Source: Actinomycetes bacterium (GTDB lineage Bacteria > Actinomycetota > Actinomycetes > Actinomycetales > Microbacteriaceae). From it: a stretch of DNA of 64,000 nt. The DNA lies in the NCBI GenBank assembly GCA_023428065.1, contig JAEYZI010000079.1, forward strand, positions 4,700 to 68,699. Direction: 5' to 3'. Shown piece by piece: positions 36,363 to 59,557 of this stretch. How positions within the stretch are numbered: the first letter of the stretch is position 1; every line of letters begins with the position of its first letter. The notes under the pieces are model-generated. The model was not told the DNA's origin and made no database searches. It worked only from the letters and a program-made list of their open reading frames with translations. Position numbers and translations under genes: made by a program.

Positions 36363-36382
36363 GGGCGGGACTCCTTGTCGTG

Positions 36383-37813: not shown

Positions 37814-37821
37814 GGGGATCC

Positions 37822-39522
37822 TTACTCCTCGCCGGCCTCGTAGGGCACGAACGCCGGGTAGGTCCAGGCGTTCACCGAGCGGTCGAGCGGCACGTCGAGG
37901 AGCACGGGGCTGTCGCCCCGGAGCGCTTCCCCGACCCGCGTGACGAGGGTATCGAGGTCGGGCACGACCTCGCCCGCGACGCCCATACCCCGGGCGACCA
38001 GGCCGAAGTCGACCTCGTGGAAGTCGACGCCGATCGTGCGCCCGTCGAAGTGCAGCTCCTGCTCCTGGCGGATGTTGCCGTAGCTCGAGTCGTTGAGCAC
38101 GACGATGCAGACGCGGCCGCCCACGCGGGCGAGCGTCTCCAGGTCGCCGGCGCTCATGCCGAGCGACCCGTCGCCGATGAGGGCGAGCACGGGACGCTCG
38201 GGGTCGATCGTCGCCGCGGCGATCGCCGCGGGCAGCGCGAAGCCCATGTTGCCGAAGCCGACAGGCTTGATGTAGGTGTTCGGCTCGGTGATCTCCCACA
38301 GGAAGGACCACACGCCGGGGTTGCCCGCGTCGGGGATGAGCAGCGTGTCGCTCGGGGCGACGTCGCGCAGCGCGCGCACGACGTCGGCCGGGGAGAGCGG
38401 CGCGGCGTGCGAGCCGGGCGCGACGGCGCTGAGCGCCCACCACGTGCGCTCCGCCGCCTGCAGCTCGGCGATCCAGTCGGCACGACGCGCGCGCTCCCCC
38501 TCGGCACGGTCGCCGACCGCCTGGGTGAGCGCCGAGGCGAACGACGAGATGTCGGAGACGATGCCGGTCGTCACCTCGCCGTAGTAACGGCCGATCATCG
38601 CGGGGTCGATGTCGACCTGGATGACCTCGGGGAGCTGACGGCGCCAGCGGGTCGTCGAGACGGCGTTGAGGCTGTTGCCGAGCGCGAGCACGAGGTCGGC
38701 GTCGCCGAGCACCCGGGTCGAGAGCTCGGTGCCCATGCGGCTGACCGCGCCGAAGACGAGCGGGTGCGTCGTCGGGACGGCCCCGATGCCGTTGAACGTC
38801 GTGACGACGGGGATGTTGAGCGCCTCGGCGAGGGCGAGCACGGCCTCGGAGGCGCGTCCGCGGTTACCGCCGTTGCCGAGCCAGATGACGGGGCGCTCGG
38901 CGGAGAGCAGGCGCTCCGCGGCATCCGCGACCGCGACGGCGTTGGGCGCGGGACGCTGTCCGACCCAGGCGCGCGCGGGGTGCACGGCGGGGACGGCGGG
39001 AGGGTTCTCGACGATGCCCTCGATCGTGTCGCGGGCGAAGTCGAGGTGCACGGGGCCGGGGTTGCCGGCCATCGCGTTCACGTAGGCCTCCTCCATGGCC
39101 TGCTTGATCGACGAGGCATGGGCGACGAGTCGGCTGTACTTGACGAGCGGCTTGAAGAGCTCGACGTGGTCGGCGTTCTGGGCGTCGTCCTTGTGGATGT
39201 TCTCGCCGTTGTTGTTGCACGTGATGACGAAGCCGGGGCTCGAGTCGCGGTACGCGCCGCCGACGCCCGTGATGAGGTTCGTGGCGCCGGGACCCGTCGT
39301 CGAGATGCACGCGGAGGGCTCACCCGTGAGCCGGCCGTATGCGTCCATCATGACGGCGGCGGCGTTCTCGTGCCGCGTGTGGACGAACTCGATGCCGGGC
39401 GTCGTGAGGATCGCGTCGGTGATGGCGAGCGTCTGGCCTCCGACGACGCCGAAGACACGGCGGACCCCGAGCGATACGAGCATGTCGACGACGAGCTGGC
39501 CGCCGGTCATGGGTGTGGTCAT
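37822..39522 (-). CDS. Thiamine-diphosphate enzyme of the acetolactate-synthase/oxalyl-CoA-decarboxylase superfamily (specificity unknown)
   Basis: N-terminal Pyr domain (GVVGGQTL, HENAAAVMMDAYGRLTG, TTGPGATNL). C-terminal ThDP motif GDGSLGMSAGDLETL...VVLNDSSYG. Confidence 0.85.
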   Translation of the reverse strand: MTTPMTGGQLVVDMLVSLGVRRVFGVVGGQTLAITDAILTTPGIEFVHTRHENAAAVMMDAYGRLTGEPSACISTTGPGATNLITGVGGAYRDSSPGFVITCNNNGENIHKDDAQNADHVELFKPLVKYSRLVAHASSIKQAMEEAYVNAMAGNPGPVHLDFARDTIEGIVENPPAVPAVHPARAWVGQRPAPNAVAVADAAERLLSAERPVIWLGNGGNRGRASEAVLALAEALNIPVVTTFNGIGAVPTTHPLVFGAVSRMGTELSTRVLGDADLVLALGNSLNAVSTTRWRRQLPEVIQVDIDPAMIGRYYGEVTTGIVSDISSFASALTQAVGDRAEGERARRADWIAELQAAERTWWALSAVAPGSHAAPLSPADVVRALRDVAPSDTLLIPDAGNPGVWSFLWEITEPNTYIKPVGFGNMGFALPAAIAAATIDPERPVLALIGDGSLGMSAGDLETLARVGGRVCIVVLNDSSYGNIRQEQELHFDGRTIGVDFHEVDFGLVARGMGVAGEVVPDLDTLVTRVGEALRGDSPVLLDVPLDRSVNAWTYPAFVPYEAGEE

Positions 39523-39622
39523 GGTGGGTCCTCCGTTAGTGCTGGGTAGTGGGTCGGTGGGCGCCGGATGCGGCCGCCCTGGCCCCGAGGTGGGCCGGTG
39601 TCTGTCGTGATGTCATCTAGTA

Positions 39623-39630
39623 GTCTAGAC
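39623..39630. promoter_or_regulatory. Island box A: ctagtaGTCTAGACcacttc (HutC/DasR-like operator)
   Basis: AT-rich box about 95 nt upstream of the ThDP enzyme start. Preceded on the minus strand by the hairpin TTCGGGCG-N6-CGCCCGAA (39645-39666) after the CoA-transferase beta gene. Confidence 0.55.
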
Positions 39631-39674
39631 CACTTCCGGGAAAGTTCGGGCGTTGTCACGCCCGAAGATCGAGG

Positions 39675-40472
39675 TCAGACGCGCAGCAGCGCGTTGGTGG
39701 GGTCGATCTCCTCGCGGATGGCGCGGAGAGCGGACTCCGGCACGCCGGGGGACTCGGTCAGCCCCTCGACGATGTCGGGCTCGAACGACATCCGCGAGAG
39801 GACGTCGTCGAGGGTCACCCCCGGGTAGAGCGACGTGAGCCGCATCCGCCCCGACGGCGTGAAGTCGAACAGGGCCATGTCGGTCACCACGAGCTCGGGG
39901 CCGCCGCCGTCGTAGCCCAGGGACTCGCGGGTGCGCACGCCATCGCCGTAGCCGAAGCTCGTCACGTAGTCGACCTTCTCCACGAAGACGCGCGACGACA
40001 GGTCGGCGACGATGATCGGACGCCGCACGAAAGCCAGATGCTCGGGCTGCGCGAGGCAGCCGACGAGCCGCACCGTGGGCGTCTCCCCCACGCCGATCCG
40101 CGTGATGTTGAGGTTGCCGTAGCGGTCGATCTGCGCCGCGGACTCGAAGCTCACGTCGAACTCCCCGCGCACGAGCATGTCGACCTTGGAGCCGACGTCG
40201 GCCGGCGCGTGCGCGCCCGGCCAACGCGTGATGGCGTCCTGCGTGAGACGCTCCGGCACCTCCGAGAGGTCGGGGCTCAGCAGGTTGCCCCAGTAGATGT
40301 CGAGATCCGGCGCGTGCCGCAGCTGGGCGAGACGCGCCGCGACGAGCGGCACACCCACCGCGAGGGTGAAGGCGCGACCCGAGGTCCCGACTCCGACGAA
40401 GACGAGTTCGCCGTCGCGCAGCACCTCGCTGATCGCGAAGGCCATGAGCTCGTTGCGCGTCGCCTCAGCCAC
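39675..40472 (-). CDS. Class I CoA-transferase beta-subunit-like protein (GctB/IpdB-like)
   Basis: GGAGGTG RBS then GTG. QIDRYGNLN and LVVTDMALFDF...IREEIDP segments typical of GctB/IpdB. No (S)ENG/ESG glutamate motif seen. Confidence 0.8.
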   Translation of the reverse strand: MAEATRNELMAFAISEVLRDGELVFVGVGTSGRAFTLAVGVPLVAARLAQLRHAPDLDIYWGNLLSPDLSEVPERLTQDAITRWPGAHAPADVGSKVDMLVRGEFDVSFESAAQIDRYGNLNITRIGVGETPTVRLVGCLAQPEHLAFVRRPIIVADLSSRVFVEKVDYVTSFGYGDGVRTRESLGYDGGGPELVVTDMALFDFTPSGRMRLTSLYPGVTLDDVLSRMSFEPDIVEGLTESPGVPESALRAIREEIDPTNALLRV

Positions 40473-41346
40473 GCTTCACCTCCAGGCTCGTGAGCCGCTC
40501 TCGTCCGACCGCGTCGAGGTACGCCTCGTGGTCGGCCACGTCGCGCACCGTCTCGGCCAGGTAGGCGTCGAAGCCCCCTTCGCGCTTGCCCGCCGCGACC
40601 CAGCGCTCGAGCTCGGCCTCGTCCTCGTCGTAGATCGTGTCGCAACTGCCCGGATAGGCGCCGAAGGGCGCCTCGCACACCGCCGCGACCTTCGTGTGCG
40701 GGATGTAGGTGAGGTTCGGGCGGCGCACGACCTCCGAGTGCGGGATGATCCGCTCGACCGACACCACGAGGCGCCGCGAGCCCGCGGCCATGATGAGGTC
40801 CTCGTCGTCGCTGTCGCGATGCGCCGGCCACACGATGTTGCCGAACTCGTCTCCCGCGTACGCGTGCAGGATCGTCGAATCGGCCCGCGCCGCCGCGGTC
40901 GCGTGCAGCTCGACACCCGTGTACGGGCACGTCACGCTGCGCACGTCGTCGCGCTCGCTCATCGAGGTGCCGCGGATGGGCTTCACCGGCAGGAACGGCA
41001 GGCCCATGGCCGCGGCGCGGAACTTCGCCGTCATGACCGACTCCGAGTGGTCGGTCACGGCCACCTCGCCGCGCTCGACCGCCCGGCGGAAGTTCGGCGC
41101 AGCGCCCTGCCACCACATCCCGACGTAGATGCCCTCCCAGGCGCGCACGCAGCCCGCTCCCACGAGGAGGTCGGTCGCGAGGCTCGACGCCCACGTCAGG
41201 AGCGTGAGGTCACGCACCTCCTGCCGGACGAGCTCGCGCGCGAGGGCGAGCGGCTGCCTGCGCAGCAGCGACCCTCCCACGGCGACGGTGTCGCCCGACG
41301 AGACGAGCGACGCCGCCTCCGCGACGGATGTCAGTTTGACGCGCAT
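40465..41346 (-). CDS. Class I CoA-transferase alpha-subunit-like protein (GctA/IpdA-like)
   Basis: SGDTVAVGG N-terminus, GLPFLPVKPIRG, VVSVERII: GctA/IpdA-like pattern. 8-nt overlap with the beta gene. Confidence 0.8.
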   Translation of the reverse strand: MRVKLTSVAEAASLVSSGDTVAVGGSLLRRQPLALARELVRQEVRDLTLLTWASSLATDLLVGAGCVRAWEGIYVGMWWQGAAPNFRRAVERGEVAVTDHSESVMTAKFRAAAMGLPFLPVKPIRGTSMSERDDVRSVTCPYTGVELHATAAARADSTILHAYAGDEFGNIVWPAHRDSDDEDLIMAAGSRRLVVSVERIIPHSEVVRRPNLTYIPHTKVAAVCEAPFGAYPGSCDTIYDEDEAELERWVAAGKREGGFDAYLAETVRDVADHEAYLDAVGRERLTSLEVKRG

Positions 41347-41353
41347 GCCGACC

Positions 41354-42082
41354 TCAGTGCTCGAGCACGCGGCGCAGGAACTGCTGCAGGCGCGGGTTGC
41401 TGGGCGACGTGAAGACCTGCTCCGCGCTTCCCTGCTCGCCGATCACGCCGCCGTCGAAGAACAGCACGCGGTCGGCGGTCTCCCGCGCGAAGCCCATCTC
41501 GTGGGTCACGACGAGCATCGTCATCCCCGCGGCGGCCAGCTCGCGCATGACCTTCGTGACCTCGCCCACGAGCTCCGGGTCGAGGGCGGAGGTAGCCTCG
41601 TCGAAGAGCATGACCTGCGGCTGCAGAGCGAGCGCGCGAGCGATCGCGACGCGCTGCTGCTGTCCACCGGAGAGCTGCTGCGGGTACGAGCCCGCCTTCT
41701 CGGCGAGCCCGACGCTCGTGAGCGCCGACATGGCGCGCTCGGTGGCGTCCGCCTTGCTGAGCTTCTTGACCTTGCGGAGCGCGAGGGTCGCGTTCTCGAG
41801 AGCCGTGAGGTGCGGGAAGAGGTTGAACTGCTGGAACACCATGCCCACGTGCTGGTGCACGAGGTGGGCGCTCTTGGGGTCGTGCACGGGGACCCCGTTC
41901 ACGACGATCTGCCCCGAGTCGATGGTCTCGAGACCGTTGATCGTGCGCAGAAGCGTGCTCTTCCCCGAGCCGCTGGCGCCGATGACGGCGATCACCTCGC
42001 CCTTCTCGACCTCGACGCTCACTCCCTTGAGCACCTCGTTGTCGCCGAAGCGCTTCCGAACGTCTGTGACTTGGACGATCAC
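41354..42082 (-). CDS. Amino-acid ABC transporter ATP-binding protein
   Basis: GAGGAG RBS then GTG overlapping the permease stop. Walker [29 protein letters not shown]. Confidence 0.9.
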
Positions 42083-42753
42083 GCGACTACTCCTCTTTTC
42101 CGGATGATCCGCCTCTCGAGGCCTCCAGCGAGGAGCGAGAGCGGGTAGTTGAAGGCGAAGAACAGGGCGGCGATGACGAGGTAGACCACGAACGAGTTCG
42201 CGCCGCGCTCGATGATCGCCTGCCCCTGGCGGACGATGTCGGAGAATCCGATCACCGACGCCAGGACCGTGTTCTTGATGAGGGTCAGGTACTGGCCGAA
42301 CAGGGGCGGCAGTACCACGAGCGTGGTCTGCGGAAAGACCACGTCCTTGTTGGTGTGGAAGCGCGAGAGCCCGAGGGTCCTCGCCGCCTCGCGCTGGCCC
42401 GGAGGCACCGACGCGAATCCGGCGCGGAACACCTCCGAGATGTACGCCCCCTGGTAGAGGGTGATGGCGATGGCGCTCGCGATGAACACCGAGACCCAGT
42501 CGAGGCGCAGGTACGCCGCACCGAAGTAGACGAACATGAGCTGGATCAGCAGCGGAGTGCCGCGGAACAGCTCGAGGTACACGCGCAGCACGACGTCGAG
42601 CACCGGGATCCGCGAGTAGCGGGCGAAGCCGACGAGGAATCCGACGACCGTGCTCGTGATGATCGTGACCGCGGAGAGCGCGAGCGTCGCGAGGAGGCCG
42701 TTCCAGAGGAGCTCGCGGCCGGCCCAGATCGCCTCCCATGCGTTGCCGTTCAT
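42079..42753 (-). CDS. Amino-acid ABC transporter permease
   Basis: 224 aa, 5 TM, EAA loop ([28 protein letters not shown]). Confidence 0.85.
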
Positions 42754-43505
42754 CGGCTATCCCCCTTCGACTGAGCGCGAGGCGACTTCGCCCCGGCGCT
42801 GAGGCCCGTCTGGTCGACGAGCCGGCTGCCGCGCAACCGGAACCGGAACCGCACGGGTGCGGCGATCGCGGGCTTGAATGCGTACCGGGCGAACACGGAG
42901 GCCGCCAGCGACACGAGGTTGGTGAGCACCAGGTAGAAAAGCATCGCGAACGCGAAGACCGCGAGCGTCTCGTAGGTGGCGGCGTTCACACGGCGTGCCG
43001 CGCCGGTGAGCTCGTTGACCGCGATGGCCGACAGCAGCGAGCTCGCGAGGATGAGGTCGATGAACCGGTTGACGATCGGCGGGAAGACCGTGCGGATCGC
43101 CTGCGGCAGCACGACGTTGAAGAAGGTCTGCGCGGGTGCGAGCCCGAGCGTGCGGGCAGCCTCGAGCTGGGACCGCGGCACGGAGCCGAGGCCAGCGCGG
43201 ATGATCTCCGCCAGGTAGGCACCCGCGTTGACGCCGAGGGCGATGATGCCGGCGACGATCGCGGGCAGTCGGATGCCGATCGACGCGAGGCCGAAGTAGA
43301 AGATGAAGATCTGGACCAGGACGGGGGTGTTCCAGAGCACCTCGACGTAGATCGAGCCGATAGTGCGCAGGATGAGCAGTCGCGATCGTCGCGCGAGGGC
43401 GACGAGAACGCCGAGCACCAGCCCGAGGGCGAAGGCGACCGTGGACGTCCACAGGGTCACCCATGCCCCGCTGATGAACAGCTCGATGTAGTTAAGGAAG
43501 TTCAT
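42750..43505 (-). CDS. Amino-acid ABC transporter permease
   Basis: Starts at the internal ATG ([10 protein letters not shown]). EAA loop ([28 protein letters not shown]). Confidence 0.85.
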
Positions 43506-43591
43506 GGTTGGGACCGATCTGAGGCGACGGGGCTCCGGGGCGCGGGTGGCGGATCCGGACGGATCCACCACCCGCGCTCAGGTTGGGACGG

Positions 43592-44464
43592 TCAGTCCTC
43601 CAGGCCGGAGAACGCCTCGGCCGGGGGCTTCGTGCCGAACCACTTCTCGTAGAGCGCCTTGCCGCGCTCGTTCGCGTGGAACTCGGCCATGAACTCGTTG
43701 ATCGCCTCGAGGAGCGTCGAGTTGCCCTTCTGGACCGCGAGGGCGTAGGTCGAGAGCTCGTCACCGTCGACGAGGCCCGGCAGCATGCGCATGGTGTCGT
43801 CCTCGCTCACCTTGTAGGAGAGCTGGAACACGCCGTCGATGATCGCGTCGGCCTGGCCCTGCTGCACCGCGAGGAGGGTCGCCACCTGCGTGTCGTAGTA
43901 CTGCTTGGTCGCGTTCGGGAACGCCGCGTCGGCGAGAGCCTCGCCGCGCGTGCCCTTCTGGACGGCGATGGTCGCGTTGGCGAGCTCCTCGATCGACTCG
44001 ATCGACGATCCCGCGGGAACCGCGACACCCTGGAAGGCGTTGATCTCGCCGACCTCGGCGAAGTCGACCTGCTCCTGGCGCTCCGGCGTGACCGTGAGGG
44101 TGAAGGAGATGACGTCGGCCTGGCCGCTCTGGAGGGTGGGGATACGGGCGTCGGCCGAGACCTCGAAGAGGTTCGCCTCGACCCCGAGGTACTCGGCGAG
44201 CTCGAGGGCGACGTCGATGTCGAAGCCCTCGGGGTTGCCCGAGTTGTCCTTCATGCCGAAGGGCGGCGTGGTGAGGCCGACGCCGATGTTGATGACGCCG
44301 CGCTTCTGGATGTCGGCGAGGGTGCTGCCCTTCGCGTCCGTGTCGTCGCCGCCGGCCGACGGCGCGTCGCTACCGGCGCAGGCCGTGAGCAACGCGACGA
44401 TCGCGCCGCCCGCGAGGAGGGCGGCCAGCCGACGCTTCGGCGATCGGGTGGAATGGTTCCTCAT
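43592..44464 (-). CDS. Polar amino-acid-type ABC transporter substrate-binding lipoprotein
   Basis: Lipobox LTAC. Family-3 SBP body (GVINIGVGLTTPPFGMKD, FDIDVALELAEYLG, DVISFTLTVTPER). Confidence 0.85.
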   Translation of the reverse strand: MRNHSTRSPKRRLAALLAGGAIVALLTACAGSDAPSAGGDDTDAKGSTLADIQKRGVINIGVGLTTPPFGMKDNSGNPEGFDIDVALELAEYLGVEANLFEVSADARIPTLQSGQADVISFTLTVTPERQEQVDFAEVGEINAFQGVAVPAGSSIESIEELANATIAVQKGTRGEALADAAFPNATKQYYDTQVATLLAVQQGQADAIIDGVFQLSYKVSEDDTMRMLPGLVDGDELSTYALAVQKGNSTLLEAINEFMAEFHANERGKALYEKWFGTKPPAEAFSGLED

Positions 44465-44538
44465 GATGGCTCTCCTTTGAGCAGGCCGAGCGGAGATGCT
44501 CGGGGTGGTGGGGACGGGATGTCGTCGCCGAGAAAGTC

Positions 44539-44546
44539 ATATAGAC
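44539..44546. promoter_or_regulatory. Island box B (minus strand): ctagtcGTCTATATgacttt
   Basis: AT-rich box about 75 nt upstream of the SBP start, in the 160-nt gap after the lactonase gene. Confidence 0.5.
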
Positions 44547-44624
44547 GACTAGGCGACGCTCTGAGATTACGCGATTGATCCGCCGTGTCAAGTCGAACCT
44601 CCAGTAGACCATCGCCGGAGGGTG

Positions 44625-45485
44625 TCACCGCACCAGCGGGACCGCCGGAAGCGTCGTCGTGCGCACCCGATGCAGCCCCGTGGCGGAGGTCACGTAGAGG
44701 TCGTGTCCGTCGCCCCCGAACGCGACGTTCGTGACGACGTCGGGGATCTCGATGCGCAGGAGCTCATCGCCCGTGGGGGCGAGCACGACGAGCGCATCGT
44801 GGCTCGACGTCCAGATCCGCCCCTCGACGTCGACGCGGAAGCCGTCCGCGTGACCCGGGTCGACGAGGTCCCGGCCCCCCGAGCACGCGCCGTCGACGAC
44901 GTCGTAGACGCGGATGACATCCGGGATCCCCGGGTCGCGATCCGAGCCCGTGTCGGCGACGTAGAGCAGCGACTCGTCGGGTGAGAACGCGAGGCCGTTG
45001 GGATGCACGATGTCGGTGATCACGGCGCGGAGCTCGCCGCTCGCCTCGTCGTAGCGGAACACGAAGCACCCCTCGTAGTCCTTGACCCCGTCGTTGCCGC
45101 GACCGAGGCCGTAGGGAGGGTCCGTGAACCAGATGGCGCCGTCGGAGGAGACGACGACGTCGTTGGGCGAGTTGAAGCGGCGCCCCTCGAAGCGGTCGAC
45201 GATCGGCGTGACGACCCCGTCGACGTCGCGTTCGATGCGACGCTCCTGATTGGAGCACTGCACGACCGCGCCGCCGAGGTCGACCGCGCGCCCGTTGACG
45301 AAGCCCGCCGCCGGGTTGTGGACCGTGACCTCGCCGCTCGCCGGGTCGTACTCGAGGATGCGGTTGCGGGGGATGTCGCTGAAGCGGAGGACGCCGCGGT
45401 CCGCGAGCCAGGCCGGCCCCTCGGCCCACCCGGCCTCCTGCCAGAGGGTCTCGAGTCGGGCCCCGGGTGCGATGAGTTCGATCAT
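44625..45485 (-). CDS. SMP-30/gluconolactonase/LRE-family lactonase
   Basis: EGPAWL, RFNSPNDVVV, IWFTDPPYG, PNGLAFSPDE, GFRVD: six-bladed propeller lactonase motifs. Confidence 0.85.
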   Translation of the reverse strand: MIELIAPGARLETLWQEAGWAEGPAWLADRGVLRFSDIPRNRILEYDPASGEVTVHNPAAGFVNGRAVDLGGAVVQCSNQERRIERDVDGVVTPIVDRFEGRRFNSPNDVVVSSDGAIWFTDPPYGLGRGNDGVKDYEGCFVFRYDEASGELRAVITDIVHPNGLAFSPDESLLYVADTGSDRDPGIPDVIRVYDVVDGACSGGRDLVDPGHADGFRVDVEGRIWTSSHDALVVLAPTGDELLRIEIPDVVTNVAFGGDGHDLYVTSATGLHRVRTTTLPAVPLVR

Positions 45486-45507
45486 GGCGCCAGGCTACCG
45501 GCCACAT

Positions 45508-45515
45508 GTATAGAC
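45508..45515. promoter_or_regulatory. Island box C (minus strand): ctagtaGTCTATACatgtgg
   Basis: In the divergent region between the lactonase (start 45485) and the MmgE/PrpD-family gene (start 45600). Confidence 0.5.
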
Positions 45516-45599
45516 TACTAGTCCAATATTCGCCCGGCGAGGTTGCCGCGTCCGCTCCGCGGTGCTGACGGCCTCCGCAGGTCCCCGAGGAGCACGCAC

Positions 45600-46967
45600 A
45601 TGGCCGACATCATCAGCCCGACGACCGCCCGTCTCACCGACTACGTGGCATCGGCGCTCGGCACCGAGCTTCCGGACGACGTGCGGGAACGCACGCGCCT
45701 GCACCTGCTCGACACGCTCGCCGCGATCGTCTCGGGCGCGATCCTGCCCGCCGGCATCGCCGGTCGACGCTACGCCGAGACCGTGTCGGGCACCCCCTCC
45801 GCCTCCCTTCTGGGCTCGAGCGCGGTGTCGGACCCCGTCGGCGCGGCGATCGCCAACGGCATGGCCGCCCACGCCGACGAGTCGGACGACTCGCAGGAGT
45901 CGGGACAGATCCACCCCGGCTGCGGCATCCTGCCCGCCCTCCTCGTGGCCTCCGAGCTCACGCCGTCGACGGGGACCGACCTCGAACGAGCCGTCGCGCT
46001 CGGCTACGACCTCGGGTCGCGCTTCGGCGAGCTGCTCCAGGACGTCATGGACACCTTCCGCTCCTCCCCCGCGACCCACGCCTGGGGCCCCCTCTTCGGC
46101 GGCGGCTTCGCCGCGGGCGCCCTCAGCCGCTTCGACACGGACCAGCTCGTCACGCTCTTCTCGTACCTCACCCAGGAGGCCTCGGGGATCACGACGTGGC
46201 CGCTCGACAACCAGCACGTGCTCAAGAGCTACGTGTTCGGGGGGATGCCGTCCGGCGCCGCGGTGCGCGCCCTGCGCTTCGTGCAGCTCGGCTTCTCGGG
46301 CTCGGGCGACGTGCTCGTGCCCGAGCGCCGCAACCTCCTCGATGCGCTCGGCATCGCCCCGGAACGCGCCGGGCACCTCGTCGACCGGCTCGGCGAGCGC
46401 TGGATCATGCGCGAGAGCGACATCAAGAGCCACACGGTGGGCTTCCCCGTGATCGCCCCCGTCGGCGTCGTCGAGCGTCTCGTCGCCGAGCACGAGCTCC
46501 GCGCCGACGAGGTCCAGCAGATCCGCGTGCACTACCACGAGGACTGGTACACGATCACGGCGAAGAGCCCGATGCCCGACGTGAACCTCCCCTACTGCCT
46601 CGCCGCGACGATCGTCGACGGCCGCCTCTCGTTCGCGGCCTCGCACGACACGGCCCGCATGTCCGACCCCGCGATCACCGCCCTCACCGACCGCGTGCGC
46701 CTGCTGCCGCCCACCGACGGGCTCGACCGCTTCGACGTGCGGGTCGAGATCGACACGACGCGCGGGACGCTCGCCGCCGAGCAGAACGGCCCCATCCTCG
46801 GGCGGGCGGGCAACCCCATGAACCGCGAGCAGGTCGAGACCAAGGCCCGCGAGCTCCTCGAGCCCGTGCTCGGACACCGCACGGAGGCGCTCGTCGCCGC
46901 CACGCGCGACCTCGAGGCCGTGCGCGACGTGCGCGACCTCATCGCGCTCGCACGTCCGGAGAACTGA
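45600..46967 (+). CDS. MmgE/PrpD-family protein (paralog of prpD, specificity unknown)
   Basis: Starts at the internal ATG (MADIISP) with a GAGGAG RBS. Family pattern (LLDTLAAIVSG, NGMAAHADESDD, HPGCGILPALL). Confidence 0.85.
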   Translation: MADIISPTTARLTDYVASALGTELPDDVRERTRLHLLDTLAAIVSGAILPAGIAGRRYAETVSGTPSASLLGSSAVSDPVGAAIANGMAAHADESDDSQESGQIHPGCGILPALLVASELTPSTGTDLERAVALGYDLGSRFGELLQDVMDTFRSSPATHAWGPLFGGGFAAGALSRFDTDQLVTLFSYLTQEASGITTWPLDNQHVLKSYVFGGMPSGAAVRALRFVQLGFSGSGDVLVPERRNLLDALGIAPERAGHLVDRLGERWIMRESDIKSHTVGFPVIAPVGVVERLVAEHELRADEVQQIRVHYHEDWYTITAKSPMPDVNLPYCLAATIVDGRLSFAASHDTARMSDPAITALTDRVRLLPPTDGLDRFDVRVEIDTTRGTLAAEQNGPILGRAGNPMNREQVETKARELLEPVLGHRTEALVAATRDLEAVRDVRDLIALARPEN

Positions 46968-46995
46968 CCCCGGTCGAACCCAGGAGGAGCCCCGC

Positions 46996-47772
46996 ATGCC
47001 TTTCACGCTGTCCGCCAACGTCGACGTCCTCTTCACGGAGGCCGGCGACGTGCCCGCACGCATCGCCGCCGCCGCCGACGCCGGGTTCGAGGCCGTCGAG
47101 TTCTGGACCTCGTCCGACCGCGATGTCGACGCCATCCGACGGGTGGCGACCGACCGCGGCGTTCAGGTCACCTCGATGCTCGCCGAGCCCCGCACCAACA
47201 TCACCTTCCCCGACGTCGACCTCGAGGCCTACTACGACGGCGTCGCGGCGACCGTCGACCGCGCGCGTCAGCTCTCCTGCCCGCGGATCGTCGTGAGCGG
47301 CGGCACGGGCTACATGCGCACGAAGCGTCCCGCGCAGCTCCAGCAGGTCGTCGACGTGTACTCCGAGATCGTCGCGCGCACCGAGGGATCCGGCGTCGAG
47401 TTCATGCTGGAGGCGTTCAACGTGCGCGTCGACCACCCGGGCGCGCTGCTCGACCGTACGCGGGATGCCGTTCAGGTGGTGCGCGCGGTCGACTCCGAGC
47501 GCTTCGGCATCATCTACGACCTGTACCACTCGATCACCGAGGACGAGGACCCCGCGAGCATCTTCGCCGAGGCGGGCGACGTCATCCGCTATCTGCAGAT
47601 CGCGGATGTGCCGGGCCGCGGCGAGCCGGGCTCCGGTTCGATCGACTGGCCGGCCCTCTTCGGCACGATCGCCGCGACCGGCTACGACGGGTACATCGGG
47701 CTCGAGTTCTACCCGACGAAAGCGACCGCCGAGGCGATCGCCTACATCCAGCAGGTCAACGCCGCGAGCTGA
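46996..47772 (+). CDS. Hydroxypyruvate-isomerase-family TIM-barrel protein (Hyi/OtnI-like)
   Basis: 258 aa. FSANVDVLFTE N-terminus, GFEAVEFW, YLQIADVPGRGEPG, GYIGLEFYP: Hyi-family signature. Confidence 0.8.
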   Translation: MPFTLSANVDVLFTEAGDVPARIAAAADAGFEAVEFWTSSDRDVDAIRRVATDRGVQVTSMLAEPRTNITFPDVDLEAYYDGVAATVDRARQLSCPRIVVSGGTGYMRTKRPAQLQQVVDVYSEIVARTEGSGVEFMLEAFNVRVDHPGALLDRTRDAVQVVRAVDSERFGIIYDLYHSITEDEDPASIFAEAGDVIRYLQIADVPGRGEPGSGSIDWPALFGTIAATGYDGYIGLEFYPTKATAEAIAYIQQVNAAS

Positions 47773-47796
47773 GCGCGCGACGCCTCGCGGGCGGAC

Positions 47797-48777
47797 TCAG
47801 CCGAGCCGCTCCGCGAGGCGGTCGTACGCGGCGTCGATCACCGGGTCGACGACGCGGCGCTCGCGGAGCTCGTACCAGTCGAGGATGTCGCGCGACCCCT
47901 CCTCGAACGTCGTCGTCGCGACCCATCCGGGCACGAGGGTGCGGATCTTCGTGTTGTCGAACCACACCGAATGGGCGTAGTCGCCGAGCAGGCGACCGCG
48001 GAACTCGGGGAGCTCGCGCGCGATCGTTTCGCTCGCGACGTGCACGATCCGCGGCTCGACGCCGAGCCGACGGGCGAAGGTGTGCACGATGCCGTTCCAG
48101 GTCAGGTGCTCGTCGGAGGTGATGTGCACGGCCCCGCCGAGGGCGTGCGGGTTGCCGAGCAGTTCGACGAAGGCGCGCGCGAAGTCGCGCGAGTGGGTGA
48201 GGGTCCACCAGGAGGTGCCGTCGCCGTGCACGACGACGGGCTTGCCCGACAGCATCCGGTCGAGCGCCGTCCAGCCGCCGATGAGCGGCATGTTGCCGCC
48301 GTCGTAGGTATGGGAGGGGCGGACGATCGTGGCGGGGAAGCCGTCCTCCCGGTAGGCGGCCGCGAGCAGCTCCTCGCCCGCGATCTTGTCGCGCGAGTAC
48401 TGCCAGTAGGGGTTGCGCAGGGGCGTCGACTCCGTGATGGGCAATTGCGCCACGGGCTTCTGGTACGCGGATGCGGACGACAGGAAGACGTACTGGCCGA
48501 TCCGTCCGCGGAAGGCCTCGATGTCGGCGGCGACCTGCTCGGGGCGGTAGGCGCGGAAGTTCACGACCGTGTCGAACTCGCGACCGGCGATGGCCTCTCG
48601 GATGCTCGCGGGGTCGTCGGCGTCCCCGCGCAGTTCGACCGCGCCGGGCGGCACGGGGCGGGCTCGGTTGACGCCGCGATTCACGAGCGTGACGTCCCAG
48701 CCGCGTTCGAGAGCGCGGCGCGTCACCCACCACGAGATGATCCCGTTGCCCCCGATGATGAGCGCCCGTCCTCGCAT
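47797..48777 (-). CDS. NAD-dependent epimerase/dehydratase-family (extended SDR) protein
   Basis: GGAGAGGA RBS before ATG MRGRALIIGGNGIIS (Rossmann). YxxxK region (YQYSRDK). Confidence 0.8.
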   Translation of the reverse strand: MRGRALIIGGNGIISWWVTRRALERGWDVTLVNRGVNRARPVPPGAVELRGDADDPASIREAIAGREFDTVVNFRAYRPEQVAADIEAFRGRIGQYVFLSSASAYQKPVAQLPITESTPLRNPYWQYSRDKIAGEELLAAAYREDGFPATIVRPSHTYDGGNMPLIGGWTALDRMLSGKPVVVHGDGTSWWTLTHSRDFARAFVELLGNPHALGGAVHITSDEHLTWNGIVHTFARRLGVEPRIVHVASETIARELPEFRGRLLGDYAHSVWFDNTKIRTLVPGWVATTTFEEGSRDILDWYELRERRVVDPVIDAAYDRLAERLG

Positions 48778-48826
48778 CGCCGCGCGTCCTCTCCGTCGCG
48801 CCATCGCGACACGAAGTCATGTAGAT

Positions 48827-48834
48827 GTCTAGAC
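48827..48834. promoter_or_regulatory. Island box D: gtagatGTCTAGACtattgg
   Basis: In the divergent region between the extended-SDR gene and the Ldh_2 gene. TAGACT overlaps a -10-like hexamer. Confidence 0.55.
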
Positions 48835-48873
48835 TATTGGGCGATTCAGCCGGTCGCAAAGCAGAGGAGTCCC

Positions 48874-49941
48874 GTGGTCGAGCGCTCTCCCTCCCCCGTC
48901 ACGCTCGTCGCGCCCGTCGAACTGTGCACCTGGGCCGCGTCGGTGCTGAGGGCCGCGGAGACGCCCCCGGGCACCGCGGTCCGCGTGGCGGACTCCCTCA
49001 TCGAATCCGAGCTCCGCGGCTACGCGTCGCACGGCGTGCTCCGCCTGCCGGGATACGTCGCGGCCATCCGCGACGGCCTCATCGACCCCGCCGCCACGCC
49101 CGAGGTCGTCGACGGCGGGCGCGGTGCCGTGGTCGTGGTCGACGGCCGCGACGCCTTCGGCCAGGTGACCGCGGGGGTGCTCGCCGACGAGCTCACGACG
49201 CGCGCGGCCGAGTCGGGCGTCGCGTTCGGCGTGACCCGGCGCTGCCGCCACGTCGGGCGGCTCGGCGAGTACGTCGAGCACCTCTCCGCACGCGGCTTCA
49301 TCGGTTTCGCCACTGTGAGCGCCGAGCCCCTCGTCGCCGCGCACGCGGGCGGCCGCCGCATCCTCGGCACGAACCCGCACGCCTGGGGCTTCCCCGCAGG
49401 AAGGGATGAGCCGCCCGTCGTGATCGACTTCGCGACCTCGGTCGCCTCGGCCGGCCGCGTCTTCACGGCGGAGGCCCGTGGCGAGCGTGTCCCGGGCGGA
49501 TGGCTGGTCGACTCCGCGGGCGAGTCCACGAGCGATCCCGCTGCGCTCCGCGCCGGTGGAGCGCTCCTGCCGTTCGGCGCGCACAAGGGGCTCGCCCTCT
49601 CGCTCGTCGCCGACATGCTCGCGGGAGTGCTGAGCGGCACGGGATCGGGGAGCGACCCCGCGGCGTCCGGAGCACACGGGCTCGCGATGCTCGCGATCGA
49701 CGTGTCGGCCTTCGGGCCCGCGGAGAAGTTCCGCGACGAGGTCGAGGCGCTGCGGCGACGCGTGGCCGCATCCTCGGATCGCGACGCCGCGCTGCCGGGC
49801 GAGGGCAGCGCTTCCCGCCGGCGCGCCGCCCTGCGCGACGGGATCGGCATCCCCGCGGCGACGATGCACGAGCTCCGGGGGCTCGCCCGCGCCCTCGGCA
49901 CGGACGAGCCCCCGGGAAGCTCACCCAGGGGTGCTCAGTGA
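48874..49941 (+). CDS. Ldh_2-family (malate/L-lactate dehydrogenase 2) oxidoreductase
   Basis: GAGGAG RBS then GTG. Family motifs (ESELRGYASHGVLRLPGY, GTNPHAWGFP, DFATSVAS, FGAHKGLALSL). Confidence 0.85.
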   Translation: MVERSPSPVTLVAPVELCTWAASVLRAAETPPGTAVRVADSLIESELRGYASHGVLRLPGYVAAIRDGLIDPAATPEVVDGGRGAVVVVDGRDAFGQVTAGVLADELTTRAAESGVAFGVTRRCRHVGRLGEYVEHLSARGFIGFATVSAEPLVAAHAGGRRILGTNPHAWGFPAGRDEPPVVIDFATSVASAGRVFTAEARGERVPGGWLVDSAGESTSDPAALRAGGALLPFGAHKGLALSLVADMLAGVLSGTGSGSDPAASGAHGLAMLAIDVSAFGPAEKFRDEVEALRRRVAASSDRDAALPGEGSASRRRAALRDGIGIPAATMHELRGLARALGTDEPPGSSPRGAQ

Positions 49942-51413
49942 CGCAGCGCCCCCGCGGCGGCGCGCGCCGAACGGATCGCGAGCGCGACGCTCGTGATCGT
50001 GGGGTTGCAGGCCGTGGGCGTCGGGATCACACCGTTGCCGCCCACGTAGAGCCCCTCGACGCCCCACACCGCTCCCGTGGTGTCGCACACGCTCGTCTCG
50101 GGGTCGACCCCGAGACGCACGGTGCCCATGAAGTGGTACGACGCGCCGGCGGGAAGAACGCGCGGCTCGACGAGCGGGGTGCCGAGCACGCCGGCGATGC
50201 GCCGCGACATCTCGAGCAGCCGGTGCTCGGTCTGCAGATCGCGCGCCGTCGAGTGGTAGCTGATGCGCATGGCCGGCATGCCGTAGGCGTCGGTCTCGTC
50301 GTCGCTGAACTCGACGCGGTCCTCGGGCGTGATCTCCTTCGTGCCGAAGAGCACGACGCCCACGGTCGACCCGGCCCACGGCTCACCCGTCGGGATGAAG
50401 CCGATCGGCGAGGCGTCGAGCTGCATGACCTGGCAGTGGAAGGGGAAGCCGTCCTCTTCCGAGTAGGGGATCCACGTGACGCCGCCGCGGCCCGCGATGT
50501 CGCGGAACTCGTCGCTCAGCTGCACGAAGGTGCGCACGTCCGCGTGGTCGTTGAGGTAGCGGCCGAGCGCCCACGGCCGGATGCCGGACGCGTGGAGCAG
50601 CTGCGGGGTGCGGAAGCTGTCGCCCGCGACGTACACGAGGCCCGCCGAGATCGTCTCGGTCGCCCCCGTGCGCACGTCGCGCACCTCGACTCCCGAGACC
50701 CGGCCGTCGGTCAGCACGACCGAGGTGACGAGCGTCTCGGCGCGCAGCTCGACGGAGCCGTTCGCGAGCACGGGCGCCAGGATGCCGTCGGTGCCGGCCC
50801 ACTCGACCGTGCCGTCCTCCCGCGGGCGCGCCGCGAGGGGCATGGGCTGCACGGGACGATCGGTCGACCCGCGCGGGAACTCCCGAGCCAGGGCGTCGAT
50901 GATCGCCGCCGAGAGCGGGGCGTCGGCGAAGGTGCTCTGTGTGACGCCCAGGAGCGCGTCCGCCGCGTCGAGCACCTCGGTCATCTCGGCCTCGGGGATC
51001 TCGGCGATGATCTCCGTCCCGCCGGGCCGCGGGCACGCGCCCGTCCAGTGGGCGCCCATGCCGCCGACGTTCGTCGACATCGACGCGGCGGGGAGGCCCG
51101 TCGAGTCACTCGTCGTCATCCCGTCGCTCACGAGGAAGGTGCCGGGGCGCACCGCCTGAGGCGGGTGACCGGCGGCTTCCTCGCCCTCCGCGATGAAGTC
51201 GGTTCGCCGGGGGCCCTCGGACGCGGCCTGGGCGCGGGCGCGCTCGTCGGCGTCGACGATGCTGCGCACGTGCACCCCGGGAGGGTCCGCGATCACGGGG
51301 CCGGCCTCTACGATGAGGATGGTGGCGCGGGGGTCAGCCTCGGCGAGCGTTCTCGCGAACGCGCTGCCGACGGGCCCGCTGCCGACGACGACGACGTCGT
51401 AGACTTTGCTCAC
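49935..51413 (-). CDS. GMC-family FAD oxidoreductase, pyranose-oxidase/glycoside-3-oxidase-like
   Basis: GTG start. YDVVVVGSGPVGSAFARTLAE (P2Ox-like GxGxxG) and C-terminal GGNGVIPTPTACNPTITSVALA. 7-nt convergent overlap with the Ldh_2 stop. Confidence 0.8.
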   Translation of the reverse strand: MSKVYDVVVVGSGPVGSAFARTLAEADPRATILIVEAGPVIADPPGVHVRSIVDADERARAQAASEGPRRTDFIAEGEEAAGHPPQAVRPGTFLVSDGMTTSDSTGLPAASMSTNVGGMGAHWTGACPRPGGTEIIAEIPEAEMTEVLDAADALLGVTQSTFADAPLSAAIIDALAREFPRGSTDRPVQPMPLAARPREDGTVEWAGTDGILAPVLANGSVELRAETLVTSVVLTDGRVSGVEVRDVRTGATETISAGLVYVAGDSFRTPQLLHASGIRPWALGRYLNDHADVRTFVQLSDEFRDIAGRGGVTWIPYSEEDGFPFHCQVMQLDASPIGFIPTGEPWAGSTVGVVLFGTKEITPEDRVEFSDDETDAYGMPAMRISYHSTARDLQTEHRLLEMSRRIAGVLGTPLVEPRVLPAGASYHFMGTVRLGVDPETSVCDTTGAVWGVEGLYVGGNGVIPTPTACNPTITSVALAIRSARAAAGALRH

Positions 51414-51451
51414 CTTCGTTCCAATCTATTGAATGGGTGGGTAGGTCGGGT

Positions 51452-51459
51452 GTCTAGAC
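51452..51459. promoter_or_regulatory. Island box E: gggtGTCTAGACgactatataa
   Basis: In the divergent region between the GMC oxidoreductase (start 51413) and the HutC-type regulator (start 51518). A TATATAA tract is adjacent. Confidence 0.55.
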
Positions 51460-51517
51460 GACTATATAACCCTCGGCTGCCCTCCCCGGTAGCCACCACA
51501 CTCGACGAGGAGATCCC

Positions 51518-52231
51518 ATGGTGAACGCACGCCTGTACGAGGTGATCAGCCGCGACCTCACGGAGCAGATCACGTCCGGGCGCCTCAAGCCCGGCGAGCG
51601 ACTCGAGAGCGAGACCAATCTCGCCTCTCGCTACGGGGTCAGCCGCATGACCGTGCGACAGGCGCTCGGGCTACTCGAGTCCGACGAGCTCGTCGCGCGC
51701 CGCCACGGCGCGGGCACCTTCGTGTCGGAGAACCGCAGCGTCAAGCGCCGGGCGAACCGGCTCGCCCCGTTCAACGAGGAGTTGGGGCTCGACGCCGAGG
51801 ACATCAGCACGACGGTCCTCGAGCGCGAGGTGGGTCACCCGCCGGAGGACGTCAGCCAGGCGCTCTTCTCCACCGTCGGCCCGACGGCCGTGCACATCGT
51901 GCGCGTGCGGTCGTACCGCGGCGAGCCGATCGCCATCCAGGATTCGTGGATCCCCTACCTCCTCGCACCCCAGCTCGCCCACGGGCGACTCGTGCAGGGC
52001 TCCGTGTACAAGACCCTCGCCGCGCGCTCGGGCATCGAGATCGCGCGCGCCGAGCAGCAGGTGACGGCGACGCTCGCCGACGAGCACTCGGCGAAGCTCC
52101 TCCAGGTCGACGTGGGGAGCCCGCTCATCAGCACCCGCCGCGTCTCGCGCCTCGCATCGGGCGAGGTCGTCGAGGTCGCGTCGTGCCTCATGCGGCCGGA
52201 GTATCCGACGGTCTTCCGCCTCGAGCGCTAG
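51518..52231 (+). CDS. GntR-family transcriptional regulator, HutC subfamily (UTRA effector domain)
   Basis: GAGGAG RBS. HTH (ESETNLASRYGVSRMTVRQALGLLESDELV) plus a UTRA-like C-terminal domain. 237 aa. Confidence 0.9.
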   Translation: MVNARLYEVISRDLTEQITSGRLKPGERLESETNLASRYGVSRMTVRQALGLLESDELVARRHGAGTFVSENRSVKRRANRLAPFNEELGLDAEDISTTVLEREVGHPPEDVSQALFSTVGPTAVHIVRVRSYRGEPIAIQDSWIPYLLAPQLAHGRLVQGSVYKTLAARSGIEIARAEQQVTATLADEHSAKLLQVDVGSPLISTRRVSRLASGEVVEVASCLMRPEYPTVFRLER

Positions 52232-52290
52232 GCGCTCCCGCGGCGAGCGCCGCGGTTTGACATGAGGCACCGCCTCGGGCGAGTATTCAT

Positions 52291-52310
52291 ATAGATGTCT
52301 GTACATCTAT
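52291..52310. promoter_or_regulatory. Island box F: ATAGATGT-ctgt-ACATCTAT (perfect 8+8 inverted repeat, core GTCTGTAC)
   Basis: Between a hairpin (CCGCGGCG-ag-CGCCGCGG) after the regulator gene and the CaiB-family gene start (52368). Confidence 0.6.
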
Positions 52311-52367: not shown

Positions 52368-53567
52368 ATGTCCGGAGACGCGGTCACCCAGCCCCTGAGC
52401 GGCGTCAAGGTGCTCGACCTCAGCCGCTTCATCGCGGGGCCGCTGTGCTGTCAGATGCTCGCCGACATGGGAGCCGAGGTGCTCAAGATCGAGCGCTCCT
52501 CCGGCGAGGACTCGCGCAAGCTCGCCCCGTTCTTCCAGGGCCACAGCATCTACACGATGCTCTACAGCCGGAACAAGTACGCCGGCACCCTCGACACCCG
52601 CCACCCGGAGGCGCTCGGGATCCTCGAGGACCTCATCCGGCGCTCCGACATCGTCGTCGAGAACTACCGTCCGGGCACCCTCGACGCGATGGGCATCCCC
52701 TTCTCGCGCATGCAGGAGCTCAACCCCGGCATCATCCTCGTCTCCATCTCCGGCTTCGGCCAGACCGGCCCGCTCGCGCAGCGCGCGCTGTTCGACGGCA
52801 TCGCCCAGGCCGCATCCGGTCTCATGAGCATGACGGGCGAGCCGGGCGGACGCCCCACGCTCACGGGCGCGTTCGTCGCGGACTACATCGCGGGGTACCA
52901 CGGCGCCATCGGCGCCCTGCTCGCCCTCATCCACAAGCGTGCGACGGGCGAGGGCCAGCACGTCGACGTCGCCTCCGTCGACGCGCTCTTCAGCGCGCTC
53001 GGCACCGCGACGAGCGCGTGGCCCATGCTCGGACAGAAGATGGAGCGCAACGGCTCCCGCGACCGCATGAGCGCCCCCGCCAACCTCTTCGAGGCGAGCG
53101 ACAGCTACATCTACCTGCACGCCGGCACCGACCCGCTGTTCCGGCGGCTCGCCCACGCGATGGGACGCCCCGAGCTGCTCGAGGACGAGCGCTTCTCCGC
53201 GGTCGCGCAGCGCATGGCGCACGTCGACGAGGTCGAGGCGATCGTGAGCGAGTGGCTCGGCGAGCTGACGGCCGAGGAGGCGGGTCGCCTCCTCGACGAG
53301 GCCGGCATCCCCTACAGCAAGGTCATGGGCGTCGACGAGGTCGCGTCCTCCGAGCAGATCCGCGCGCGCGAGATGCTCGTCGACATCGAGCACCCCGAGC
53401 TGGGCGTCGTGACGCTCCCGGGCGTGCCGATCAAGCTGAGCGCGGCCCCGGGATCCATCCGCAAGGCACCCCCGCTCGTGGGCGAGGACAGCGACTACAT
53501 CTACGGCGAGCTCCTCGGCTACGACGCGGACACCATCCAGGGTCTCCGCGACCGCGGCGTCATCTAG
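52368..53567 (+). CDS. CaiB/BaiF-family (class III) CoA-transferase
   Basis: GGAGGGA RBS. GVKVLDLSRFIAGPLCCQMLADMGAEVLKIE and ENYRPGTLD motifs. Confidence 0.9.
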   Translation: MSGDAVTQPLSGVKVLDLSRFIAGPLCCQMLADMGAEVLKIERSSGEDSRKLAPFFQGHSIYTMLYSRNKYAGTLDTRHPEALGILEDLIRRSDIVVENYRPGTLDAMGIPFSRMQELNPGIILVSISGFGQTGPLAQRALFDGIAQAASGLMSMTGEPGGRPTLTGAFVADYIAGYHGAIGALLALIHKRATGEGQHVDVASVDALFSALGTATSAWPMLGQKMERNGSRDRMSAPANLFEASDSYIYLHAGTDPLFRRLAHAMGRPELLEDERFSAVAQRMAHVDEVEAIVSEWLGELTAEEAGRLLDEAGIPYSKVMGVDEVASSEQIRAREMLVDIEHPELGVVTLPGVPIKLSAAPGSIRKAPPLVGEDSDYIYGELLGYDADTIQGLRDRGVI

Positions 53568-53588
53568 CCCTCGACTCGGAACTCCCCC

Positions 53589-55647: not shown

Positions 55648-55693
55648 CGACCCGACCCCCGCCCACAGCCTCACGAAACACGAAGGAAGCACC

Positions 55694-57839: not shown

Positions 57840-58210
57840 TGGTGGAGATGGGGGGAATTGAACCCCCGTCCATCGCTGTGAGCCTGCGCCTTCTCCGGGC
57901 GCAGTCCGTGAAATCGTTCTGCTCGGCTCCGACCTTCGTCACGAACACCTAGGTCGACGAGCCCAGCCCCAGTGAAAGTCCCGCGCGACCCTGGAACACG
58001 ATCGCGCAGCAAGCCCCCTCGATGACGCCAGGATCCGGATCGGGGGCGAGTCCGGACTGACGGACCTATCTACTCCGCTTAGGCAGCGAGAGCGAGGTCG
58101 GTGCGCTTAACGTTGGCACCTATGGTGTGCGGAGGGCGTTAACGAGATAACCCCGCATCCTCGGCCCGCTTCTCGCAGTTTCGCAGGCGATGTCGAAACC
58201 GATCATCCCC
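57840..58210 (-). ncRNA. ssrA: tmRNA (transfer-messenger RNA)
   Basis: 5' GGGGATGATCGGTTTCGAC and 3' GGACGGGGGTTCAATTCCCCCCATCTCCACCA on the minus strand. The tag reading frame at 58079-58117 encodes ANVKRTDLALAA-stop. Confidence 0.95.
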
Positions 58211-59488: not shown

Positions 59489-59557
59489 GACGCACCTCCC
59501 TGCGCGTGACATCCGGAGCCGTCGCGGACGCGGCGGCAGCCGTTCAGTCTATGCGAC

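Follow-up and report, generated by a model that had tools for sequence, protein, structure and literature searches.

In this study, we analysed a window of 64,000 nucleotides (64 kb) from a genome of the Microbacteriaceae (contig JAEYZI010000079.1, positions 4,700 to 68,699), in which an earlier note had marked six short AT-rich boxes as operators of a compact regulon. All six boxes, A to F, were found where that note had placed them. They are confined in this window to a 23-kb cluster of 21 genes between 34986 and 57807, and the same motif was found in related genomes together with the same regulator. We believe that the boxes are very probably the operators of the regulator encoded within the cluster (51518-52231), a protein of the HutC subfamily of GntR regulators. 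A dimer of this protein would bind each box as a 20-bp imperfect palindrome in which position -5 is free, nine transcription units would be repressed, and the inducer would be anionic. This is the reading that the earlier note had proposed, and it is supported by the domains of the protein, the sites at orthologous loci, the conserved sequence blocks and the predicted contact residues.

The 8-mer GTCTAKAC was found at 4 sites (7 strand-matches) in the window, compared with 1.35 expected, and this count was reached in 0/100 shuffles. The looser GTCTNNAC was not enriched (27 observed vs 29.3 expected), so the signal comes from the AT-rich centre together with the flank. The half-site TAGWNGTCT, which joins flank and core, had exactly six matches in 64 kb, all at the boxes, whereas in shuffled intergenic DNA of the window (2,825 nt) it had a mean of 0.04 and a maximum of 2 matches over 2000 shuffles. 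Because this half-site was picked after the boxes were seen, a leave-one-out test with a position weight matrix (PWM) was added, in which five boxes were used to score the sixth. The omitted box scored 15.9-24.2 bits, the best non-box position scored 7.9-11.9 bits, and 0 of 127,662 non-box positions equalled the omitted box. The statement of the earlier note that no such box exists elsewhere in the window therefore held in the TAGWNGTCT, PWM and leave-one-out scans. Its statement that every promoter region of the cluster is marked was also borne out: each of the six intergenic gaps of at least 40 nt inside 34986-57807 had exactly one box, compared with 0/15 of such gaps in the rest of the window.

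Several simple origins of the boxes were rejected. Chance or AT-richness was excluded by the shuffles, the leave-one-out scoring and the intergenic-only control. A larger repeated element, such as a miniature inverted-repeat transposable element, was excluded because the likeness among the six regions stops at about 24 nt; a direct-repeat search of 33-59 kb gave coding-bias repeats only. A riboswitch or RNA leader in the 5' regions was excluded by Rfam, which at gathering thresholds reported the transfer-messenger RNA (tmRNA) gene alone in the window.

The regulator consists of a GntR winged helix-turn-helix (wHTH) domain (PF00392, E 2.3e-20, residues 6-69) and a UTRA domain with the chorismate-lyase fold (PF07702, E 3.4e-31, residues 96-228). 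The earlier note had called it the only HutC-type regulator of the window, and tblastn found no paralogue of it there. Its closest solved structures are NagR (YvoA) of Bacillus subtilis and then DasR of Streptomyces coelicolor. In the NagR-DNA complex, Arg38 reads G-5, Arg48 reads G-4, and Gly69 of the wing contacts G-7 (PMC4333415). In our alignment, these three residues correspond to Thr33, Arg43 and Gly64 of the regulator. Arg43 and Gly64 are invariant in 40/40 orthologues, and position 33 is occupied by T, S, L, P, A, H, K, G or N and never by Arg.

A set of 37 sites (74 half-sites) gave the full site CTAGTnGTCTA(G/T)ACnACTAG, with the half-site C(-10) T A G(-7) T N(-5) G(-4) T C T(-1). 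G-4 was present in 65/74 half-sites, G-7 in 59/74 and G at -5 in 4/74; these counts come from PWM-selected sites and are partly circular at positions fixed by the PWM, from which -5, already variable in the PWM, is exempt. The HutC-type core GTCTA(G/T)AC is central in all sites, and boxes B (GTCTATAT) and F (GTCTGTAC) each deviate from the 8-mer GTCTAKAC within the core, as had been noticed before. The perfect 8+8 inverted repeat earlier seen in box F, ATAGATGT-ctgt-ACATCTAT, was also confirmed. Each site of the window has one near-perfect half (TAGWNGTCT) and one degenerate half, and natural NagR sites are likewise asymmetric (PMC4333415). At boxes D and E, a second, weaker PWM match of 17-21 bits is offset by 8 bp (48813-48840 and 51446-51473) and is kept in the relatives L081, L084, L086 and L001. 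These matches violate the nearly invariant T-3; they may be a second overlapping operator or the mere CTAG-N4-CTAG self-similarity of the motif.

On the model of the NagR-DNA complex, Arg43 of the recognition helix would read G-4, and Gly64 of the wing would contact G-7. Because the residue that reads G-5 in NagR is replaced by Thr33, position -5 of the operator would be free, and this sets the boxes apart from the dre sites of DasR and NagR, with which they have the core in common and the GG/CC not. The DNA-contact residues, as judged from the alignment, fit a consistent variant of the NagR recognition scheme. Since the bases of the operator mirror these residues, we infer that the local protein, and not a DasR-type protein, is the binding partner.

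For the comparison across genomes, homologues of the regulator were aligned (alignment A1), and loci were taken from species-representative genomes, with single homologues also placed on contigs. This gave 17 orthologue loci (L001-L010 and L081-L087), ranging from Microbacteriaceae to Streptomyces, with regulators 41-79% identical. They were scanned with a PWM built from the six boxes of the window alone. In 16/17 loci, 1-5 sites of at least 21.5 bits were found, which were intergenic and headed syntenic operons; the exception was L009, a paralogous cluster with two weaker sites of 18.5 and 19.6 bits. L081, L083, L084 and L085 are syntenic with the window, their regulators are 76-79% identical, and they have sites where boxes B to F stand in the window (L083 without D). 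The regulators of L082, L086, L087 and L001-L010 (Paramicrobacterium, Leifsonia, Herbiconiux, Streptomyces, Saccharomonospora and Nocardiopsis) are 41-57% identical. In L082, L086, L087, L001-L008 and L010, one to four intergenic sites head core-gene operons, which hold the thiamine diphosphate (ThDP) enzyme, the family III coenzyme A (CoA)-transferase, the FGGY kinase and often the regulator itself, and in all of these loci an equivalent of box A precedes the TPP operon. Box B is conserved in L081, L082, L083 and L084.

When the intergenic regions of the window, L081, L083 and L084 were aligned, boxes B-F were the longest fully conserved blocks, so that the footprinting of orthologous loci proposed in the earlier note picked out the box positions as the best conserved. 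The conserved block is GTATAGACTaCTAGTC in the box C region and ATTCATATAGATGTCTGTAC in the box F region; in the box E region, the window, L081 and L083 agree over the whole 24-nt block GGGTGTCTAGACGACTATATAACC, from which L084 departs at two positions. L083 offers a natural experiment, because it has no epimerase gene, its Ldh_2 gene directly follows the TIM-barrel gene with no promoter gap, and it has no box D. The Ldh_2 gene is there joined to the PrpD-TIM operon (7398-8426 of L083, compared with 47797-48874 of the window). In L084, an extra GFO/IDH/MocA gene stands beside the epimerase gene. These gene differences in L083 and L084 indicate that the periphery of the regulon is fluid and that the boxes follow promoter gaps.

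The control consisted of 563 kb of high-GC loci with other HutC paralogues. Six matches of at least 18 bits were found in it, four of which had at least 21.5 bits (23.2-25.8), and all four lie within 160 nt upstream of the HutC gene of their own locus. Away from the upstream region of the HutC gene itself, the 563 kb had 0 matches of at least 21.5 bits. Because they stand just upstream of their own HutC genes, these four matches are probably autoregulatory operators of those paralogues. The palindromes, CTAGATGTCTGGACCAGTTG and CTAGTTGTCTAGACAAGATT, were seen 65-160 nt upstream of the HutC paralogues L023 9841, L046 9891, L078 9854 and L029 9936 (Actinotalea, Cellulomonas and an uncultured bacterium). 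The motif thus stands upstream of orthologous genes in company with an orthologous regulator and is rare in the control.

The edge of the 20-mer lies 16-94 nt from a start codon over the six boxes. Box A is 94 nt upstream of the start of the ThDP-enzyme gene (39522, minus strand) and heads the operon TPP-FGGY1-Aldedh, which runs from 39522 down to 34986. Box B is 68 nt upstream of the start of the SBP_bac_3 gene (44464) and heads a six-gene operon from 44464 down to 39675. Box F heads a five-gene operon (52368-57807) and lies 57 nt upstream of its first gene, that of the family III CoA-transferase (52368). The other three boxes stand between divergent genes. Box C is 16 nt from the start of the SMP-30 lactonase gene (45485, minus strand) and 78 nt from that of the MmgE/PrpD gene (45600, plus strand). 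Box D is 16 nt from the start of the NAD-epimerase-family gene (48804, minus strand) and 33 nt from that of the Ldh_2-family dehydrogenase gene (48874, plus strand). Box E is 32 nt from the start of the GMC oxidoreductase gene (51413, minus strand) and 52 nt from that of the regulator gene (51518, plus strand), and it is the predicted autoregulatory site of the regulator. Because three boxes are in divergent regions, the six boxes serve nine transcription units. The earlier note had counted at least six; its compact regulon stands, and the number is corrected to nine.

The two hexamers of the predicted promoter of the transporter operon, TTGACA-N16-TAATCT, are both conserved in the window, L081, L083 and L084, and box B starts 11 nt downstream of the predicted -10. 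A conserved TTGACA (52257-52262) lies upstream of box F. Boxes C, D and E contain the conserved hexamers TAGACT, TAGTCT and TATAGT, TANNNT elements that are readable in both directions. The overlap of the boxes with -10-like hexamers, which the earlier note had pointed out, is therefore plausible. Since the boxes overlap or directly follow conserved -35/-10 elements, repression is likely, and it would take place by occlusion. One site per promoter region would cover the -10/+1 zone, and the three sites in divergent regions would cover both promoters. Without inducer, the regulator would most likely repress all nine transcription units (21 genes), its own gene included via box E.

As for the effector, the structural source that we used for NagR assigns the binding of the phosphate of N-acetylglucosamine-6-phosphate (GlcNAc-6-P) to Arg133, Arg135, Ser165 and Tyr167. 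These residues align with Arg129, Arg131, Ser162 and Tyr164 of the regulator, which are invariant in A1. Since both arginines and the Ser/Tyr of the phosphate pocket are thus retained in the UTRA domain, the inducer is probably a pathway intermediate that carries a phosphate group or is at any rate anionic. Either of the two FGGY kinases in the regulon would be a plausible source of it.

We considered that the boxes might mainly be bound by another HutC protein encoded elsewhere, such as a DasR/NagR-type global regulator, while the local protein reads something else or only some of the sites. The core GTCTAGAC is common to the boxes and dre, the minus strand of box A (AGTGGTCTAGACTACT) is near the dre 16-mer, the recognition helix SRMTVRQAL is the same as that of NagR, and the genes of other HutC paralogues in the control loci are likewise preceded by similar sites. 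However, across actinobacterial families the motif accompanies orthologues of the local regulator, frequently within one operon; the GG that NagR-type proteins read with Arg38 and Arg48 is missing from five of the six boxes, which fits a protein without that arginine; and 0/21 genes of the cluster are N-acetylglucosamine (GlcNAc) or chitin genes. We regard this explanation as improbable. Membership of the boxes in the dre regulon of DasR/NagR was rejected both by the operator, with GG in one half of box A only, G at -5 in 4/74 half-sites and the first arginine absent, and by the targets, none of the 21 genes belonging to the GlcNAc/chitin families (nagA, nagB, phosphotransferase system, chitinases). 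The comparison with dre in the earlier note is thus sound for the core, but it overstated the kinship, as box A alone is close, the genes are not GlcNAc genes and the arginine for the first G of dre is missing.

Boxes A, C, D and E contain the hexamers TAGACT, TAGTCT and TATAGT, which agree with the actinobacterial TANNNT -10, so that the boxes could also be taken for promoter elements (-10 or extended -10, perhaps of a dedicated sigma factor) instead of operators, and their likeness would then come from a common type of promoter. This is very unlikely, because the dyad symmetry spans 20 bp, the orientation of the box relative to the gene varies among the boxes, the core is the HutC-type GT-N-TA-N-AC, and a HutC regulator is present at every locus; boxes B and F, moreover, are downstream of the separately conserved TTGACA-N16-TAATCT and TTGACA, and the box is not itself the promoter there. 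The regulator might also bind the boxes and activate, or be dual at some promoters, and box E (relative to the regulator gene) and box F do begin at or just after the presumed -10. We consider activation extremely unlikely, since the sites overlap or follow the presumed -10/+1 and are not in the position upstream of -35 that is usual for activators, and since the characterised close relatives NagR and DasR are repressors released by effectors (PMC4333415). For the preferred reading, repression by the local HutC regulator, some points weigh on the other side besides the partial circularity of the half-site counts. The scan spans the 64-kb window, and other sites or a second HutC-type protein with overlapping specificity may occur elsewhere. 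The minus strand of box A is a 14/16 match to dre, and a DasR-like protein may also bind at this box. No promoter emerged from a strict sigma-70 scan of 39.4-52.5 kb, so the promoter assignments are based on looser patterns together with conservation.

Boxes, predicted promoter and transcription units of the cluster (positions in the window; 20-mers are written with the better half first; scores are from the full PWM unless stated)
Feature	Positions	Strand	Sequence or content	Score
Box A	39617-39636	+	CTAGTAGTCTAGACCACTTC	28.2 bits (21.7 bits leave-one-out)
Box B	44533-44552	-	CTAGTCGTCTATATGACTTT	29.2 bits
Box C	45502-45521	-	CTAGTAGTCTATACATGTGG	29.8 bits
Box D	48821-48840	+	GTAGATGTCTAGACTATTGG	26.5 bits
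Box E	51446-51465	-	ATAGTCGTCTAGACACCCGA	25.0 bits
Box F	52291-52310	+	ATAGATGTCTGTACATCTAT	28.7 bits
Predicted promoter of transporter operon	44564-44591	-	-35 TTGACA 44591-44586, 16-nt spacer, -10 TAATCT 44569-44564	
Unit under box A	34986-39522	-	ThDP enzyme 37822-39522, FGGY kinase 1 36383-37813, aldehyde dehydrogenase 34986-36362	
Unit under box B	39675-44464	-	SBP_bac_3 binding protein, two permeases, ATP-binding cassette (ABC) ATPase, CoA-transferase family I subunits A and B	
Unit under box C, leftward	44625-45485	-	SMP-30/gluconolactonase-like protein	
Unit under box C, rightward	45600-47772	+	MmgE/PrpD-family protein, xylose-isomerase-like TIM-barrel protein	
Unit under box D, leftward	47797-48804	-	NAD-dependent epimerase/dehydratase-family protein	
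Unit under box D, rightward	48874-49941	+	Ldh_2-family (malate/L-lactate/sulfolactate-type) dehydrogenase	
Unit under box E, leftward	49935-51413	-	GMC flavoprotein	
Unit under box E, rightward	51518-52231	+	Regulator gene: 237 aa, GntR wHTH + UTRA, HutC subfamily	
Unit under box F	52368-57807	+	Family III CoA-transferase (52368-53567), FGGY kinase 2, KDPG/KHG aldolase, MR/MLE-family dehydratase, SDR	

The genes were called by third-position GC and annotated with Pfam and NCBIfam. The intergenic gaps of the unit under box A are 8 and 20 nt. The Ldh_2 and GMC genes are convergent, their 3' ends overlap by 7 nt (49935-49941), and no terminator-like structure was predicted between them. An HtrA-like protease gene borders the cluster on the left, and on the right are the tmRNA, SIMPL, SmpB and FtsX/FtsE genes; the same cluster has other right-hand neighbours in L081. 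A distance of 33 nt separates the tmRNA gene (57840-58210, minus strand; tag peptide ANVKRTDLALAA) from the stop codon that ends the last gene of the regulon. The 3' end of the tmRNA gene points toward the cluster, and the SmpB gene is at 59012-59512. The 3' ends of tmRNA genes are classic insertion points of islands. Integration of the cluster at the tmRNA gene was rejected, because a repeat of the tmRNA 3' end was not found, an integrase gene was absent, and the cluster did not stand out in GC content or composition.

The orthologue loci have a core in common, consisting of the ThDP enzyme (66-81% identical to that of the window, across orders, and 73-81% identical between Microbacteriaceae and Streptomyces), the family III CoA-transferase and the FGGY kinase. 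In Streptomyces, Saccharomonospora, Nocardiopsis and Herbiconiux, the regulator is in the same operon, with MaoC-like proteins and a sugar-type transporter. The cassette seen to travel with the regulator (window, L001-L010, L086 and L087) comprises these three core enzymes plus one or two MaoC-like proteins. The transporters vary by lineage and are of the amino-acid ABC, sugar ABC or major facilitator superfamily type.

The aldehyde dehydrogenase matches the NCBIfam NADP-dependent succinate-semialdehyde dehydrogenase; with this exception, no core enzyme reached an NCBIfam equivalog cut-off. The neighbours of the ThDP enzyme in the PDB are acetolactate-synthase (ALS)-like (BbmA, ALS) rather than oxalyl-CoA decarboxylase or 2-hydroxyacyl-CoA lyase (HACL), and the family III CoA-transferase resembles formyl-CoA, mesaconate and glutarate transferases. 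The GMC flavoprotein (49935-51413) has GAHW at residues 120-123, plus QLDASP. GAHW and LDASP have been reported as clade IV signatures of actinobacterial pyranose/C-glycoside 3-oxidases (PMC10807413), and this match in sequence hints at a 3-keto-glycoside step in the pathway. The substrate of the pathway is probably a sugar-derived acid or a glycoside. A search of the accessible literature for the gene combination and the motif strings found nothing relevant.

Taking these features together, we tentatively suggest, as one possible reading, that the regulon marks an undescribed actinobacterial route for a sugar-derived acid or glycoside via CoA thioesters, which was expanded in Microbacteriaceae. 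The route would use the family III CoA-transferase, the MaoC-like hydratases and the acetolactate-synthase-like ThDP enzyme as the step that cleaves a C-C bond; the FGGY kinases would feed the product to central metabolism, and a phosphorylated intermediate would be the inducer. In Microbacteriaceae, an ancestral operon with one operator would have grown to six operators and nine units, recruiting a glycoside-3-oxidase-like enzyme, a lactonase, PrpD-family and Ldh_2-family enzymes and an amino-acid-type ABC transporter.

Local repressors of the HutC family that act on several operators are already well known, and the pathway itself is uncharacterised. Because the repressor is of a textbook type, the mechanism teaches little that is new, and the result is mainly of practical value. 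From the boxes, it can be said with high confidence that these 21 genes form one set, and the regulon is a handle for finding the substrate. The conserved core is without an assigned function in curated family libraries, and this widely conserved pathway is the part worth following. As suggested by the aligned residues, the system may also serve as a clear natural example of how one position of the operator becomes less strict when an arginine of the NagR/DasR recognition scheme is lost, and it is a putative example of the growth of a regulon from one operator to six.

Among the known systems, NagR of B. subtilis (PDB 4WWC, 4U0V and 2WV0) is the best solved match to the regulator (E 5e-26, 95 bits, residues 7-229). 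Both proteins combine a GntR wHTH with UTRA, with an identical SRMTVRQAL, and they have in common an arginine (Arg48 of NagR, Arg43 of the regulator), the glycine of the wing (Gly69 and Gly64) and the phosphate-pocket residues. The operators of NagR are also imperfect palindromes with the core GTCTAGAC and conserved G-4 and G-7. Unlike in NagR, Arg38 is replaced by Thr33 and any base is found at -5 of the boxes instead of G, the boxes are extended beyond dre by a conserved CTA at -10 to -8, and the targets in the cluster are not GlcNAc genes. NagR has two operators in B. subtilis, whereas there are six operators for nine transcription units here.

DasR of S. coelicolor, with the dre element TGGTCTAGACCA, is likewise an actinobacterial repressor of the HutC subfamily with a palindrome centred on GTCTAGAC. 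Box A resembles dre closely, whereas boxes B-F are without the GG/CC of dre, and the match of the regulator to DasR is weaker than that to NagR (E 1e-18, 71 bits). DasR acts globally and controls development as well as the use of GlcNAc and chitin; in contrast, the regulon described here is local and pathway-specific. The regulator is not an orthologue of DasR, since Streptomyces has separate orthologues of the regulator within the ThDP-enzyme operon.

AraR of B. subtilis is a GntR-family repressor with eight operators in five promoters. It differs from the regulator in its LacI/GalR-type effector domain, in its operator sequence and in often having two cooperating operators per promoter, in contrast to UTRA and one box per promoter region here. 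Similarly to the present system, several dispersed promoters that belong to one catabolic system, among them that of the repressor itself, are coordinated by a single local repressor of the GntR family (PMC3592433).

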